Source of the DNA: Deltaproteobacteria bacterium | GTDB taxonomy: Bacteria > Desulfobacterota > SM23-61 | Assembly: GCA_026388915.1 (NCBI GenBank) | Contig: JAPLIW010000424.1 | Span: 1-32,079 of the forward strand | Length of the DNA stretch: 32,079 nt | Direction: 5' to 3' | Shown: positions 8,305-29,164 of the stretch, piece by piece | Layout: the number at the start of each line of letters is the position of its first letter | Numbering within the stretch: position 1 is the first letter of the stretch | Made by a program: the position numbers and the translations under genes | The notes under the pieces: generated by a model | What the model was told of the DNA's origin: nothing | Databases searched by the model: none | The model's input: the letters and a program-made list of their open reading frames with translations, nothing else

Positions 8305-9030
8305 ATGACCTATGAGTTCAAGTGGTCCGTTCTGTGGGCCCAGCCGCATCTTACCTGGCTCATCGACGGGCTCCTGACCACCCTTCGGCTGGCCTCGATC
8401 AGCTGGTGCATCGCCGTTCTTCTGGGGATTGTCTTCGGGGCCATGCGGACCGTCCCCTTCCGGCCGGTCCGGGTCGTGGCGACCGCCTACGTGGAGTTCT
8501 TCCGCAACGTCCCCCTGCTGGTGTGGCTTTTTTTCTGGTATTTCGGAGCCCCGGAAGCCTTTCCCGAACCGGTCCGCCAATGGTTCATTCACCACGGGAT
8601 TGAATTCTGGTCCGCGGTTGCGGGCATCAGCGTCTACCACGGGGCCAGGTTTGCGGAGGTCATCCGGGCGGGGATCCAAGCCATCCCCAGGACCCAGCTC
8701 GAAGCCGGGCTTTCTTCCGGGCTCTCGGTGGCCGCCACCTATCGGCTGATCATTATCCCCATCGCCCTGCGCCTCATCGTTCCCCCGGCCACCAACGAAT
8801 CTTTGAACCTTCTGAAGAACACCTCCTTGGCCATGACCATCGGCGTAGCCGAGCTTACTTTCGCCGCCCGCCAGATCGAGACCTACACGGCCAAGGCCGT
8901 GGAAGCCCTGACCTCGGCGGCCTTGATCTACCTGGTCCTCTGCCTGTCGATTTCCAGCGTCATGAACTGGCTTGAGGGAAAATTCGCCATTCCCGGGCTC
9001 ATCGCCCGGGGGACGAGGGCCGAACATTGA
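8305..9030 (+). CDS. Amino acid ABC transporter permease (alternative start at 8284)
   Basis: YVEFFRNVPLLV, AEVIRAGIQAIPRTQLEAG (EAA loop) and LLKNTSLA; hydrophobic. Confidence 0.92.
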   Translation: MTYEFKWSVLWAQPHLTWLIDGLLTTLRLASISWCIAVLLGIVFGAMRTVPFRPVRVVATAYVEFFRNVPLLVWLFFWYFGAPEAFPEPVRQWFIHHGIEFWSAVAGISVYHGARFAEVIRAGIQAIPRTQLEAGLSSGLSVAATYRLIIIPIALRLIVPPATNESLNLLKNTSLAMTIGVAELTFAARQIETYTAKAVEALTSAALIYLVLCLSISSVMNWLEGKFAIPGLIARGTRAEH

Positions 9031-26251: not shown

Positions 26252-26989
26252 TTATGATTGTTTCTTCTTCTTGGCTTCTTTCTCCTCTTTTTCCTTTCGC
26301 TTTTTCTCTTCTTTGGCAATCTTTTCCCGGCAGGTCGGCAGGAGGGGATTGATCTTTCCCTCGAGGCCCACATCCGGGTATTTCTTTAAAATCTCCTCGA
26401 AGCGGCCCAGGGCGGCCTTGTAGTGCCCTTTCCGGTAGTAGAAATGCCCGATGTAATACTCATGGTCGGCAAGCTGGCGCCGGCAGATCTGCATCCGGGT
26501 TTTGGCGTCGGAGGTGTATTTGCTCTGGGGAAAATTTTCGACGACATAACGAAACTGTTCCAGGGCTTTCTCGGTTACGGTCTGATCCCGGTCGATCGAG
26601 AGCATTTGTTTGGAATGACACATCCCGACCTGGTAGATGGCGTAAGGGATCTCCGGATGAATGGGATGGAGTTTCTTAAAGTCTTCATACTGGACGATGG
26701 CCTCGGCGTAATTCTTGTCGAAATAGAGGGAATCGGCCAGGCGGAGTTCGGCCAGGGGGGTGTAGGTACTCAGCGGAAAGTCCTCCTTGAACTTCCGGAA
26801 AGCCTCGGCCGAGCGTTCATATTTTTTCTTTTCCAGCAGACGGAGACCCTCTTCATACGCCATCTGCGGCGTCCTCTCCGGCTCCTTTTTCTCAAAAAGA
26901 GCACACCCGCCAACCCAGAACAGCAGAGAGAGGGCGACGAAGATCACAAACGAAGAAAAGCTTGTTTCTTTACCTTTCGACCTTCTCAT
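26252..26989 (-). CDS. bamD: Outer membrane protein assembly lipoprotein BamD (ComL/YfiO)
   Basis: Lipobox VGGC, TPR pattern (FP.S....AELRLAD, F..LHP.H, DRDQ, LA.HE..IG.FY, AA.GRF) and a Lys/Glu-rich tail. Confidence 0.92.
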   Translation of the reverse strand: MRRSKGKETSFSSFVIFVALSLLFWVGGCALFEKKEPERTPQMAYEEGLRLLEKKKYERSAEAFRKFKEDFPLSTYTPLAELRLADSLYFDKNYAEAIVQYEDFKKLHPIHPEIPYAIYQVGMCHSKQMLSIDRDQTVTEKALEQFRYVVENFPQSKYTSDAKTRMQICRRQLADHEYYIGHFYYRKGHYKAALGRFEEILKKYPDVGLEGKINPLLPTCREKIAKEEKKRKEKEEKEAKKKKQS

Positions 26990-27033
26990 ACCTCAATTCA
27001 TTTCCTGCGCTTTTTGAGAAAAGATCCAATTCC

Positions 27034-27062
27034 AATATATATTCCCCACCCTCTGCTGTCAA
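27034..27062 (-). promoter_or_regulatory. Putative sigma70 promoter of bamD
   Basis: TTGACA (27062-27057), 17 nt, TATATT (27039-27034). Confidence 0.65.
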
Positions 27063-27130
27063 TCGGAAGGTATTCCGCATTCCGGTAACTTTTCCATTCC
27101 GCCCTTCGTATTGGAGGTTTTTGGTACTTG

Positions 27131-27226
27131 CCTCAAGCGAAGCGCTCCTCAACTCACGCCCATGGCGTGACGCTCCTCGAGTCCCGCCTCAGGCGGGACG
27201 GTCCTCAAGACCCGAAGGGTCGGTCC
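27131..27226. repeat. Array of four (T)CCTCR hexamers, each followed by a different mini-hairpin
   Basis: cctca[agcgaagcgc]tcctca[actcacgcccatggcgtgacgc]tcctcg[agtcccgcctcaggcgggacgg]tcctca[agacccgaagggtcgg]tcc. Confidence 0.85.
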
Positions 27227-27244
27227 ATTTCTATTCCGCATTCT

Positions 27245-28048
27245 CTAGAACTTCATCCCTGGAAGGTTCAGGGAAGCGGTGTTGCCGCCGTCCACCGGAA
27301 GGGACTGGCCGGTTATGTAGCTGGCCTCGTCGCTGGCCAAAAACAAAATGGCACGAGCGACCTCTTCGGGTCGGCCGTAGCGCCGCAGCTCACAGCGACT
27401 GCCCAGTTTGCCAAACTTGCCCCTCTGGCGGGCCAGCTCAAAGATAGGCCGGGTCATCCCCGTTTCGATCAGGCCCGGGCAGACCGCGTTGACCCGGATA
27501 TTATAGCCGCCCAGGTCGCAGGCGGCCGTTTGAGTAAAGTTGATCAAGGCGGCCTTGCTGGCGCTGTAGGCGTTCGTCCCCGCACCGGATCGGATCCCGG
27601 CAACCGAGGCCGTGTTCACGATGGAACCGGTCTCCCTTTCCTTCATGTGCCTGGCGGCGTATTTCGTCGCATAAACCGCCCCCAGCACATTCACGGAGTA
27701 AACTTTGTGCCAGTCGTCCCCGTCCTCGTGTTCCAGATCTGCCAGCGCCCCGGTAATCCCGGCATTGTTGCAAAGAATATCGGTTTGGGAATAATTTTTT
27801 AGGGCCAGGTCGATCAATTCCTTCACTTCGGCTTCCCTGGCGACATCGGTCTTTTTGATAATTCCCTCGCCATTTTCCTTCTGCACTAGGACCATGGTTC
27901 TTTTCAACCCCTCTTCGTTGACATCGGCCAAAACCAGCCTGGCTCCTTCCCGGGCAAAAAGAACCGCTGCAGCCTGCCCGATGCCGTCGGCCGCCCCCGT
28001 AATAATGGCCACCTTCCCTTCCAGACGCCCTTTTCGCTCCCGGCCCAT
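27245..28048 (-). CDS. Short-chain dehydrogenase/reductase (probably NAD-preferring)
   Basis: TGAADGIG, Asp at the end of beta-2 (LADV), NNAG, catalytic YSASK, IRVNAVCPG and ITGQ...VDGG. Confidence 0.93.
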   Translation of the reverse strand: MGRERKGRLEGKVAIITGAADGIGQAAAVLFAREGARLVLADVNEEGLKRTMVLVQKENGEGIIKKTDVAREAEVKELIDLALKNYSQTDILCNNAGITGALADLEHEDGDDWHKVYSVNVLGAVYATKYAARHMKERETGSIVNTASVAGIRSGAGTNAYSASKAALINFTQTAACDLGGYNIRVNAVCPGLIETGMTRPIFELARQRGKFGKLGSRCELRRYGRPEEVARAILFLASDEASYITGQSLPVDGGNTASLNLPGMKF

Positions 28049-28933: not shown

Positions 28934-29164
28934 AAATCCGAATATCGAATTTCGAAATCCGAAACAGATTCAAGGAATATTTTTCTCGCAGAGCCCGCAG
29001 GGATCGCAGAGAAGACCCGCAACTCAATAACCGCTTATATCCTGGCCATTATCTTGGCATTGTATTTAGAAAAATATTTCTGTTTTCCCTATGGCCTCTG
29101 CGGCCTCTAGCGAAGCGGGCGAGAGAAAAGCCTTTGTCTTTTTCGGGTTTCGAGTTTAGGGATT
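28934..29164. repeat. Nested repeat elements: heptamer arms outside, nonamer arms inside
   Basis: Outer arms are aaatccg aatatcg aatttcg aaatccg aaac (28934-28965) and degenerate tttcgggtttcgagtttagggatt (29141-29164). Inner arms are tctcgcagagcccgcagggatcgcagagaa (within 28981-29013) and 29085-29129. Confidence 0.75.

Follow-up and report, generated by a model that had tools for sequence, protein, structure and literature searches.

What kind of element is a row of unlike hairpins strung on one short repeat, and how do such rows arise? The question is raised by positions 27,131 to 27,226 of a 32,079-nucleotide stretch (the window) of a Deltaproteobacteria bacterium genome (GCA_026388915.1, contig JAPLIW010000424.1), where a sequence-only reading had described four hexamer repeats, each loaded with a different mini-hairpin, and had proposed that an enzyme inserts these hairpins one by one. 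We followed the array through the source genome (G000), two array-rich congeners (G001 and G003), and two array-poor congeners (G002 and G004), with contigs denoted by C numbers; G000 is a fragmented bin of 953 contigs with 8.68% contamination.

Layout of the array

The array of repeats and hairpins was confirmed, with its sequence as first described. Over positions 27,131 to 27,232, four perfect hairpins are strung on a constant linker, CG(C/G)TCCTC(A/G)AG (Table 1). The alternation over four units therefore stands, but the constant unit is an 11-mer and not a hexamer. Among 130 linkers of the source genome, positions 1, 2, 4–8, and 10 are invariant at 92–98%, and position 11 at 88%. Linker 1 ends in a C at 27,153 (CTCCTCAAC) that deviates from the family consensus G; G was read there in most contigs from four runs, the majority of those contigs being other copies of the family. 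The window has a single match to the two-linker pattern, and none of 100 shuffles has any. DNA folding energies were −7.2 kcal/mol for hairpin 2 and −9.1 kcal/mol for hairpin 3, and 0 of 200 shuffles folded equally well.

Table 1. Parts of the array and its flanks, in window coordinates
Feature	Position	Strand	Sequence or remark
Left flank	27070..27102	+	ATTCCGC-type heptamers (GTATTCCGCATTCCGG ... CCATTCCGC)
Left arm	27103..27130	+	CCTTCGTATTGGAGG weak hairpin, then T-rich TTTTTGGTACTTG
Head half-linker	27131..27137	+	CCTCAAG; arrays begin with TTTTGCCTCAAG
Hairpin 1	27137..27143	+	GCGAAGC mini-hairpin (C-GAA-G); usual first unit of arrays
Linker 1	27144..27153	+	GCTCCTCAAC
Hairpin 2	27154..27170	+	TCACGCC-CAT-GGCGTGA; 7-bp stem, loop CAT
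Linker 2	27171..27181	+	CGCTCCTCGAG
Hairpin 3	27182..27198	+	TCCCGCC-TCA-GGCGGGA; 7 bp (8 with closing G-C), loop TCA
Linker 3	27199..27209	+	CGGTCCTCAAG
Hairpin 4	27210..27220	+	ACCC-GAA-GGGT; closed by G27209 and C27221
Tail	27221..27232	+	CGGTCCATTTCT; half-linker CGGTC and T-rich stretch, right end of element
Right flank	27233..27243	+	ATTCCGCATTC; target-type heptamer, abuts SDR stop codon
SDR gene stop codon	27245-27247	minus	

Several parts of the array recur elsewhere. The stem type of hairpin 2 is the commonest in the family, and hairpin 4 is also the last unit in C721, C926, and G001:C35. The left arm is kept at the unrelated loci G001:C24, G001:C28, and G000:C729; its CCTTCGTATTGGAGG segment is partially complementary to hairpin 4, and in predicted folds the left arm and hairpin 4 form a long-range helix. 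At the other end, the ATTCCGC flank follows the last hairpin at a constant distance in C250, C266, C560, C721, C729, and C926. The heptamers of the left flank are probably target sequence lying outside the element, since the G001 site orthologous to C721 has the heptamer block without the element; the tail is missing at that empty site.

Copy number and distribution of the family

The locus is one copy of a dispersed family, and whole arrays with an identical order of hairpins are found elsewhere. G000 holds about 45 arrays, against 4 in the reversed-genome control (earlier family counts had given 36 matches and 39 places). The two-linker pattern has 46 matches in G000, 49 in G001, and 32 in G003, with none in all three for a control pattern read backwards. 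By the same pattern, the close congeners G002 and G004 have 1 match each, and 12 genomes of the same family are also nearly without arrays. Of 401 genomes sampled from the phylum, only two, G000 and G001, had the three-linker pattern, whereas the 11-nt linker is common to five genomes at 51–55% AlaRS identity, with different hairpins. This patchy distribution points to horizontal spread. No association with phages is shown: five of the six viral-contig matches are coding tandem repeats, and one (L193) is a true small array.

The unit is CCTCRAG, a perfect G-C-closed hairpin, and CGST, and head-to-tail joining of such units yields the 11-nt linker. The composite element comprises a left arm, 2–6 units, and an 11–12-nt T-rich tail, 130–200 nt in all. 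The idea that the inserts are constrained in format was borne out. Stems group in a few related families (TCACGCC, TCCCGCC, TCAAGCC, TCGCGCC, and others), and spacers differ in most of 120 units, the commonest occurring 5 times.

Of the 45 arrays, scored with a crude gene caller, 30 are intergenic, 8 share sequence with a predicted open reading frame, and 7 are at contig ends; certain copies extend into reading frames. Among the 30 arrays that could be scored for orientation, 12 are opposed to both flanking genes, 10 are co-directional with both, 5 have genes converging on the array, and 3 have genes diverging from it, so that array orientation to neighbouring genes is random (12 vs. 10). Units inside one array are all co-oriented, and head-to-head pairs of whole arrays occur in C92, C582, C434, and C439, and also in G001:C8.

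In so fragmented a bin, with 10 of the 45 arrays within 300 nt of a contig end, the arrays might be products of chance or of faulty assembly. This explanation is refuted by the identical array at the orthologous G001 locus, by contigs from four independent runs that cover the array piecewise (they end inside it, and none spans the whole), and by controls that are all near zero.

Gain, loss, and turnover of units

The copies at G001:C24, G001:C28, and G000:C729/C721 agree in left arm, hairpin order, and tail but lie between unrelated flanks, and G001:C20 carries two 133-nt copies that are 94% alike and 11 kb apart. Copies also differ in presence between orthologous sites. The orthologous sites of G001 and G002 lack the C721 copy but retain an intact heptamer block; the C519 copy is missing in G002 and the C729 copy in G003; and G001:C8 has a head-to-head array pair of 200 nt of which there is none in G000:C406. 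In 3 of 3 comparisons of filled and empty sites with a conserved flank, AT(T)CC directly follows the tail; such junctions often lie within blocks of ATTCCGC heptamers. These three are the only clean comparisons, the remainder being replacements or mosaics. Copies associated with ATTCCGC have a left flank of (A/T)TCCGC or a close variant, for example TCCCGC. The one extra heptamer at C721 may be a 7-bp duplication or a case of heptamer copy-number variation.

Inserts unique to this locus, a lack of empty alleles, or a match to a known repeat class had been named beforehand as signs against a new element. Instead, inserts occur at other loci in the source genome and its relatives, empty and differently filled orthologous sites exist, and no known Rfam family or REP class matches.

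Single units differ as well. Between G000:C92 and G001, whose flanks are 86% identical, there is an exact 24-nt difference of one hairpin plus linker, and hairpins are swapped with fully compensatory changes while the linkers are kept. At C582, additional units are present at the tail end. GCGAAGC encloses a further hairpin of 22–24 nt (CCCTGAACC...GGTTCAGGG), bordered on either side by CGAAG, in C560 (twice), C458, and C547, in the named-record loci L037 and L052, and in the G003 copy of the locus studied here. The linker-flanked one-unit difference, the tail-end units, and the nested hairpin would all fit a dedicated enzyme that inserts single mini-hairpins into the linker, duplicating the linker, such that the array grows like an inverted CRISPR. 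We nonetheless regard this unit-by-unit loading as improbable. Whole arrays at unrelated loci have an identical hairpin order, the stems belong to few related families and are not independent inserts, and deletion between direct linker repeats explains the one-unit difference equally well. At the locus itself, contigs of the four other runs, from which rare variants drop out, contain no allele with another number of units; one of these runs has an extra ATTCCGC heptamer after 27,071. The supposed solo insertion also speaks against loading: the 10-mer AGCGAAGCGG at 29,109–29,118, thought to interrupt another repeat, belongs as a conserved module to a second repeat family: of 12 aligned copies, 11 contain CTC(T/G)AG-CGAAGCG-GGCGAGAG and one a diverged version of it. 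What stands of the enzymatic proposal is a single-stranded-DNA mechanism of the HUH type, as leading candidate; loading of hairpins one by one is unneeded by the data, although the exact one-unit difference leaves room for it.

Strand, candidate enzymes, and related systems

On the linker strand, the 87 triloops of G000 include 39 of the form GNA and 4 of the form TNC, and the 120 triloops at other loci include 58 and 7, respectively; tetraloops at other loci (n = 52) are GNNA in 18 cases and TNNC in 2, and the 39 tetraloops of G000 are without this bias (2 vs. 3), all these counts being non-independent because array copies share descent. The linker-strand loops obey the single-stranded-DNA mini-hairpin rule, C-GNA-G, and not the RNA-hairpin rule. 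The claim that GCGAAGC is an exceptionally stable DNA mini-hairpin holds and generalises to GNA. A paper on such hairpins gives d(GCGAAGC) a Tm of 76.5 °C and states that sequences of the rule GCGNAGC/GCGNNAGC are less stable as RNA than as DNA; in its account, mini-hairpins mark the sites of primase recognition and of single-strand initiation and are resistant to SSB and nucleases (PMC13037366). Of 32 contigs scored for GC skew along the array strand, 21 had negative and 11 positive values (p = 0.07, not significant). G-T and A-C mismatches have no strand asymmetry, and the RNA fold of the whole element gives z = −2.7 for each strand alike, which is uninformative on strand. Nearest-neighbour DNA folding does not distinguish the strands, the special stability of GNA being invisible to the method (GCGAAGC = 0 kcal/mol).

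The loop rule bears on two other readings. In the first, the element acts at the RNA level: transcribed hairpins would stabilise or terminate mRNAs like REPs, or the reverse strand, CUYGAGGASCG, would bind ribosomes or CsrA through Shine-Dalgarno-like or GGA motifs. We consider this unlikely, even though, in the 12 arrays opposed to both neighbours, the distance of the tail from the stop codon of the upstream gene is −15 to 97 nt in 11 and 719 nt in one, and AGGAG/AGGA can be read in the reverse linker. With orientations of 12 vs. 10, half of the copies would present the complementary motif; the loops follow the GNA/GNNA rule of DNA, and many, for example GTCA, are neither GNRA nor UNCG. An intrinsic terminator would show a GC hairpin with a U-run right after it on the transcribed strand; within the array at this locus no terminator-like site was called on the minus (gene) strand, and the sole such site that the element contains falls in its left arm, where a hairpin and T-run lie on the + strand. 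The distribution of CsrA at first favours an RNA role, the protein being present in G000, G001, and G003 and not found in the array-poor G002 and G004, and 4 of 5 distant genomes with arrays have it, compared with 13 of 38 relatives without arrays. However, G000, G001, and G003 form one clade in the AlaRS tree (support 90/89), so the co-distribution of CsrA and arrays within the genus is a single event, and csrA lies within a flgK-flgL-csrA-fliW cluster of flagellar type. Clade structure and flagellar gene context account for the CsrA link. A sponge of the CsrB/RsmZ type, a discrete small-RNA gene rich in GGA motifs, would likewise have CsrA and the GGA of the reverse-strand linkers in its favour, but the arrays occupy about 45 loci in both orientations and csrA is of the flgL-csrA-fliW type.

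In the second reading, which we judge very unlikely, the arrays have a host function at the DNA level and their mobility is secondary; they would be SSB-free hairpin sites, priming sites, or nucleoid-protein platforms, roles of the kind suggested for BIMEs and, at single-strand origins, for mini-hairpins. The strand-specific loop bias is in keeping with such a role, as are the SSB- and nuclease-resistant mini-hairpins at primase and single-strand initiation sites (PMC13037366) and the nucleoid roles of linker-bearing REP clusters in E. coli (PMC4550694). Against it, G002, G004, and the 12 same-family genomes do nearly without arrays, copies are gained and lost between species, and some enter reading frames.

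We searched for a gene partner among the Y1_Tnp matches, of which G000 has 10. In the 300-nt flanks of the eight that were inspected, there were other hairpins and no array, nor did these flanks in the fragmented assembly reveal an autonomous TnpA-encoding element with matching ends. One of the 10 Y1-bearing contigs holds an array, 3.3 kb off, and two G003 Y1 genes lie 0.6–0.9 kb from arrays, separated from them by other sequence and bearing inverted repeats of their own. The predicted co-occurrence with RAYT/TnpA genes flanked by the same hairpins was accordingly not found among the inspected Y1 genes of G000 and G003. Across five related genomes, Y1 matches (10, 7, 3, 13, and 2) loosely track arrays (46, 49, 1, 32, and 1), which, with five related genomes, does not amount to a test. 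For PF05635, none of 11 inspected loci and contigs carries an array, and the gene is equally common in array-poor genomes.

The explanation that we favour, with a probability of about 0.55 for the whole of it, unit turnover included, is that the segment belongs, as a single copy, to a mosaic repeat that is non-coding, restricted to a lineage, and present in high copy number. The element would be non-autonomous, similar to REP/BIME or MITE, and an enzyme with its gene elsewhere would move it in trans, in single-stranded DNA form. The leading candidate is an unlinked HUH/Y1-type transposase that would act like those of IS200/IS605 or RAYT. The hairpins would be made for the CCTC strand, on which they would fold as DNA mini-hairpins (C-GNA-G). 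Units would turn over mainly through exchange at the 11-nt linkers, identical in the many copies, by recombination or template switching, and this exchange may also maintain the perfection of the hairpins. The copy studied here would sit passively between the SDR stop codon and a bamD promoter-like site.

Known repeats resemble this element in different respects. REP/BIME clusters and REPIN doublets of Proteobacteria are high-copy extragenic clusters of GC-rich palindromes, often just past stop codons, and are accompanied by RAYT transposases; REPs vary between close species, in some cases form inverted pairs, and probably act in single-stranded form. The arrays resemble them in these respects and are likewise high-copy and extragenic (45 vs. 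4 in the control; 30 of 45 between predicted genes). A REP of the RAYT system, however, is an imperfect palindrome with a family-conserved stem and a conserved 5′ tetranucleotide of the GTAG type, whereas here the stems vary, the 11-nt linker is constant, there is no GTAG-type 5′ tetranucleotide, and no inspected Y1/RAYT gene is flanked by arrays. BIMEs have palindromic units of alternating orientation with defined linkers; in the arrays, units are co-oriented and only whole arrays pair head-to-head. Miniature elements of IS200/IS605 (PATEs), on the IS608 model, have end hairpins, move as strand-specific single-stranded DNA, and insert beside a fixed 4–5-nt target without duplication. The arrays share with them hairpins near both ends, one end beside AT(T)CC, and a fixed short distance from terminal hairpin to end. 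The loop asymmetry (39 vs. 4; 58 vs. 7) would favour strand-specific single-stranded hairpins here too, the GC skew remaining at p = 0.07 and the mismatches symmetric. They differ in having 2–6 interchangeable hairpins instead of one per end, and no autonomous copy with matching ends was found.

The BOX elements of pneumococci, boxA-(boxB)n-boxC, are similarly modular, internal units in varying number lying between a fixed head and a fixed tail, and are dispersed, non-coding, and MITE-like; their internal units are near-identical 45-mers, whereas units here are 16–28 nt long and their hairpins differ within one array. CRISPR arrays alternate a constant with a variable part, too, but their repeats are 23–50 nt long, their spacers are unique and not palindromic, and they form one or a few long arrays accompanied by cas genes. 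Here the constant part is an 11-nt non-palindrome, the variable part is a palindrome of 5–17 nt from related families, and about 45 short arrays of 2–6 units (2–5 internal linkers) are dispersed over the genome. The layout does not fit CRISPR, and the only CRISPR-DR match is at chance level (E = 8.1) and outside the array.

Rfam models at gathering score matched nothing but tRNAs in the window and in 15 array-bearing loci, and matches at E ≤ 10 were at chance level. The same design is found in hairpin-and-linker arrays of gut Clostridia, the Gut-1 RNA motif (RF01706) among them, which are multi-copy and intergenic, have tiny variable hairpins on a constant 7–10-nt linker, and differ in linker, phylum, and habitat (Weinberg 2010, PMC2864571). 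The Gut-1 model had 0 matches in the whole genome at E ≤ 1, none in positions 26,900–27,400 at E ≤ 10, and none at gathering score in the 15 array-bearing loci. Our literature search found no paper on repetitive extragenic palindromes in Desulfobacterota and, among the matches listed, no description of an intergenic repeat of hairpins on a constant linker. Geobacter genome papers report other multicopy sequences and heptamer blocks, and their supplementary alignments may contain similar arrays (PMC2700814, PMC2996986). The arrays are an undescribed family of a familiar bacterial repeat kind and are not CRISPR-like.

At this locus, the segment would be a passenger and no regulator of the SDR or bamD genes. 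More generally, bacterial intergenic regions are shaped in part by short palindromic repeats, which also interrupt metagenome assemblies. The features of the family and the look-alike arrays of gut Clostridia suggest a wider class of single-stranded-DNA elements. A bolder version, to which we give little credence, is that such arrays form a cross-phylum class of mobile element in which the linker would be the recognition and cleavage site of a candidate recombinase that moves whole arrays and adds or removes single units, with the accompanying tandem heptamer blocks (ATTCCGC and others) as footprints of repeated insertion and excision; if this were true, the identical linker at 51–55% AlaRS identity would mark the horizontal spread of the enzyme. 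Three features go beyond the textbook picture of REP and RAYT: an invariant linker with freely varying perfect hairpins, one linker common to very distant sediment lineages, and loops that follow the mini-hairpin rule of DNA and not that of RNA.

Hairpin arrays as a dispersed repeat family

The array lies within a 255-nt gap separating two minus-strand genes, and it is composed of variable perfect hairpins joined by a constant linker, CG(C/G)TCCTC(A/G)AG. The sequence-only reading had described it as four mini-hairpins between hexamer repeats. The two long hairpins folded as DNA with -7.2 and -9.1 kcal/mol, values equalled by 0 of 200 shuffles, and a two-linker pattern occurred once in the window and in 0 of 100 shuffles; this bears out the description, apart from the constant part, which is an 11-mer and not a hexamer. 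A strong, near-consensus sigma-70-type promoter-like site (11/12 matches) lies between the element and bamD, and the sequence around it recurs with few differences at the orthologous loci of two congeners, G001 and G003. The window copy thus lies past the SDR stop codon and before the bamD promoter, and its strand is opposite to that of both genes.

Features at and around the window array
Feature	Position	Strand	Detail
Short-chain dehydrogenase (SDR) gene	27245-28048	minus	Pfam adh_short_C2, E = 2e-66
BamD/YfiO lipoprotein gene (bamD)	26252-26989	minus	E = 9e-42
Promoter-like site	27062-27034	minus	TTGACA-17-TATATT
Window array, order of parts			half-linker CCTCAAG / GCGAAGC / GCTCCTCAAC / TCACGCC-CAT-GGCGTGA
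Window array, continued			CGCTCCTCGAG / TCCCGCC-TCA-GGCGGGA / CGGTCCTCAAG / ACCC-GAA-GGGT / CGGTCCATTTCT
Heptamer blocks	27070-27102, 27233-27243, 28938-28965		
Second high-copy repeat	28970-29140		about 150 nt; inverted ends TCTCTCGCAGAG ... GCGAGAGA

The hairpin array is a member of a dispersed repeat family, not a single locus. A 151-nt stretch gave 36 matches in its own genome (G000) and 39 places by more sensitive BLAST. Scanning G000 for linkers with up to two mismatches, 16-60 nt apart and with hairpin spacers between them, yielded 45 arrays containing 130 linkers and 85 spacers; the reversed genome, used as a control, yielded four. Across the 130 linkers, invariance is 92-98% at positions 1, 2, 4-8, and 10 and 88% at position 11, with C, G, or A at position 3 and A or G at position 9. 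In 71 of the 85 spacers, the ends form a perfect stem of 3 bp or more. Because the closing G of a linker base-pairs with the opening C of the one that follows, the true repeat unit can be written CCTCRA-[G hairpin C]-GST. At their heads, arrays carry T-rich sequence and GCCTCAAG, followed most often by GCGAAGC, and they close with CGGTC and a T-rich stretch. No Rfam family matched the window or 15 other array loci.

We also compared contigs from four independent sediment and peat runs over the window locus. Summed depth was about 5-10 in the flanks and climbed to 57-253 over 27136-27207, and contigs break off at 27178-27183; the repeat is thus abundant in the sampled communities and breaks assemblies. 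One run carries an extra ATTCCGC after 27071, a heptamer copy-number polymorphism. These contigs, which cannot show rare alleles, revealed none with a different number of units. No RNA run was found to contain the stretch.

Composite elements and their turnover between species

Elements at unrelated loci have in common the left arm (CCTTCGTATTGGAGG followed by T-rich sequence), the hairpin order, and the T-rich tail (contigs C24 and C28 of G001 and C729 of G000; also G000:C721, whose left arm differs), so that what has been dispersed is a composite of 130-200 nt. Two 133-nt copies on G001:C20, 94% alike, lie 11 kb apart in different flanks, and head-to-head inverted array pairs occur on four G000 contigs (C92, C582, C434, and C439) and on G001:C8. 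Tandem heptamer blocks of several kinds (ATTCCGC, GTAACGA, CAGGAAT) regularly accompany the arrays.

Besides the three window sites, heptamer blocks are found in many G000 array flanks, where further kinds (GACCGCT, CTCCGCT, and others) occur, and also beside some Y1 genes (C786, C682). A hairpin module, CCCTGCAC...GTGCAGGG then CCCTGAACC...GGTTCAGGG, occupies ATTCCGC-block sites on contig C643 of congener G004 and in the left flanks of G000:C250 and C926. Its second hairpin is also nested within GCGAAGC units, making these intergenic sites mosaics of several module types.

At the window site, the four-hairpin array of G001 (88% identity over a 1.7-kb query across the locus) is the same but for one substitution. 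The G003 array at this site carries a hairpin nested within unit 1 and a large insertion in unit 2 and lacks unit 3, and congener G002 has neither the SDR genes nor the array. On G000:C721, left arm, array, and tail sit between AATCCGC and ATTCCGC. This copy is missing from the orthologous site in G001 and G002, where ...CCCCTACA runs straight into the ATTCCGC block, which indicates that the heptamer block is the target and not part of the element. G000:C406 lacks the 200-nt head-to-head pair of G001:C8, and G003 lacks both the C729 copy and the accompanying heptamers. G002 also lacks the C519 copy, and there the two genes nearly abut; in G000 (C519, 8031-8111) the neighbouring right reading frame runs into the array and gains a C-terminal extension, while the G002 gene terminates at the point corresponding to the start of the array. 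In all three comparisons with conserved flank, the tail immediately precedes AT(T)CC, and ATTCCGC begins at a constant distance past the last linker in six G000 copies. When 36 arrays of congeners and two named records with the same repertoire were tested, 20 had both flanks on one G000 contig, and three of these 20 sites were near-empty in G000.

Single units also turn over. Between G000:C92 and its G001 counterpart (86% flank identity), the difference in length is exactly one hairpin-plus-linker, 24 nt, and several same-position hairpins differ by paired, fully compensatory changes or by two-arm stem length, with linkers unchanged. Independent compensatory mutation could produce such pairs, but exchange with other copies via identical linkers would explain them more easily, because so much paired change is found at so low a divergence. 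At C582, units near the head are conserved and those at the tail end differ.

Strand of the loops and distribution across hosts

On the CCTC (linker) strand, GNA triloops outnumber TNC triloops by 37 to 4 of 77 in the strict set, 39 to 4 of 87 in G000, and 58 to 7 of 120 at other loci, and GNNA and TNNC tetraloops stand at 18 to 2 of 52 at other loci and 2 to 3 of 39 in G000; these counts overstate independence because the copies share descent. GNA and GNNA loops are closed by a C-G pair, and many array tetraloops, such as GTCA, are not GNRA. The bias is the DNA mini-hairpin rule, GCGNAGC and GCGNNAGC. According to one source (PMC13037366), d(GCGAAGC) has a Tm of 76.5 C, is nuclease-resistant and markedly more stable than its RNA form, and DNA mini-hairpins mark priming sites on single-stranded phage DNA. 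Scored with a crude purpose-made gene caller, 30 arrays had an assignable orientation relative to flanking genes: 12 opposed to both, 10 co-directional, 5 between converging genes, and 3 between diverging genes. The other 15 either overlap a predicted ORF (8), which read-through as at C519 may explain, or have no gene on one side (7). Array orientation relative to flanking genes is random. Together, the strand-specific loop rule and the indifference to transcription direction point to single-stranded DNA. Weaker tests gave no signal: along the array strand, GC skew was negative in 21 of 32 contigs and positive in the other 11 (p = 0.07), mismatch types had no strand asymmetry, and nearest-neighbour folding is blind to GNA stability.

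The two-linker pattern occurs 46 times in G000, 49 in G001, and 32 in G003, once each in G002 and G004, and in none of 36 genomes of other genera (family and phylum sample); a backwards-read control pattern had a single match among these 41 genomes, in G037. Of 401 genomes sampled from the phylum, two, G000 and G001, contain a three-linker pattern. An AlaRS tree groups G000, G001, and G003 in a single clade (support 90/89) that excludes G002 and G004. A wider scan with one genome per species gave at least 110 loci and at least 116 matches. Among the matches listed, 27 are flanked on each side by a hairpin spacer: 24 belong to records labelled delta-proteobacterial, Desulfobacterales/-aceae, Candidatus Desulfatibia, or Syntrophobacterales, one belongs to a Methanosarcinaceae bin, and two are plain tandem repeats from other phyla. 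Most of the other 89 listed are coding repeats of high-GC organisms. Thirteen named records have the same linker with their own hairpin sets, and five of these genomes (G404-G408) carry 5-17 pattern matches each (controls, 0). Their AlaRS proteins, one of them split, are 51-55% identical to that of G000, compared with 74% for an array-free genus of the same family. The same linker in distant hosts and its absence from nearer ones argue for horizontal spread. Viral contigs gave six hits, including one true small array (L193, a 27.6-kb record of a viral-contig collection).

Candidate partners, related repeats, and proposed mechanism

Y1_Tnp hits were present in all five genomes of the genus (10, 7, 3, 13, and 2 in G000-G004). 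Arrays flank none of the Y1_Tnp genes inspected, and the RAYT-like genes have inverted repeats of a different kind. A Y1-domain family of about 330-350 aa has its own flanking inverted repeats of the GGGGACGTTGGTTCTAAGT type (G003:C286, 14018-15067; G000:C733) and is multi-copy in G003 and G001. PF05635 genes were rejected as partners, being equally common in array-poor genomes and not near arrays at the 11 loci and contigs inspected. Within the genus, the genomes with CsrA are precisely the array-rich ones; among distant array-bearing genomes, 4 of 5 have it, versus 13 of 38 array-free relatives. We give this link little weight because csrA sits in a flagellar-type flgK-flgL-csrA-fliW cluster and the array-rich congeners form one clade. 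Near-identical flgL-csrA-fliW clusters on two G000 contigs (C644, 1178-1420; C768, 3019-3261) probably reflect strain heterogeneity (bin contamination, 8.68%).

The genus is very rich in repeats. The second high-copy family in the window gave 82 BLAST rows in the genome, often tandem (e.g., C255, C166, C685, and C173); it has internal C-GCA-G and GCGAAGC mini-hairpins, and its conserved CTC(T/G)AG-CGAAGCG module resembles the first unit of the linker family. A dispersed repeat of about 265 nt (G000:C519, about 8665-8930; locus record L004, 2135-2400) occurs tens of times in G000, G001, G003, and G004, with no copy among the matches listed for G002; for another of about 180 nt (G000:C729; locus record L003, about 968-1148), copies number in the tens in G000 and G001 and are fewer in G003 and G004. 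The heptamer blocks beside arrays are paralleled in Geobacter metallireducens, whose genome is reported to have many multicopy intergenic sequences, tandem heptamer blocks included (PMC2700814).

In its behaviour the element resembles both REP/BIME elements and IS200/IS605-derived miniature elements, but it falls short of the tests that define each group. The Gut-1 covariance model had no match at the window locus (E <= 10) or in G000 (E <= 1); on the architecture of Gut-1, the main text of Weinberg 2010 (PMC2864571) offers nothing further than table rows. The arrays belong to a known kind of bacterial repeat; a limited literature search turned up no description of the linker family itself. 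In the mechanism we favour, whole composite elements would be mobilised in trans as single-stranded DNA, next to AT(T)CC, and units would turn over through linker-mediated recombination; the single-stranded-DNA and HUH steps are those we infer. The arrays are a real, well-defined repeat family, and it is close to certain that they represent a dispersed repeat that is gained and lost.
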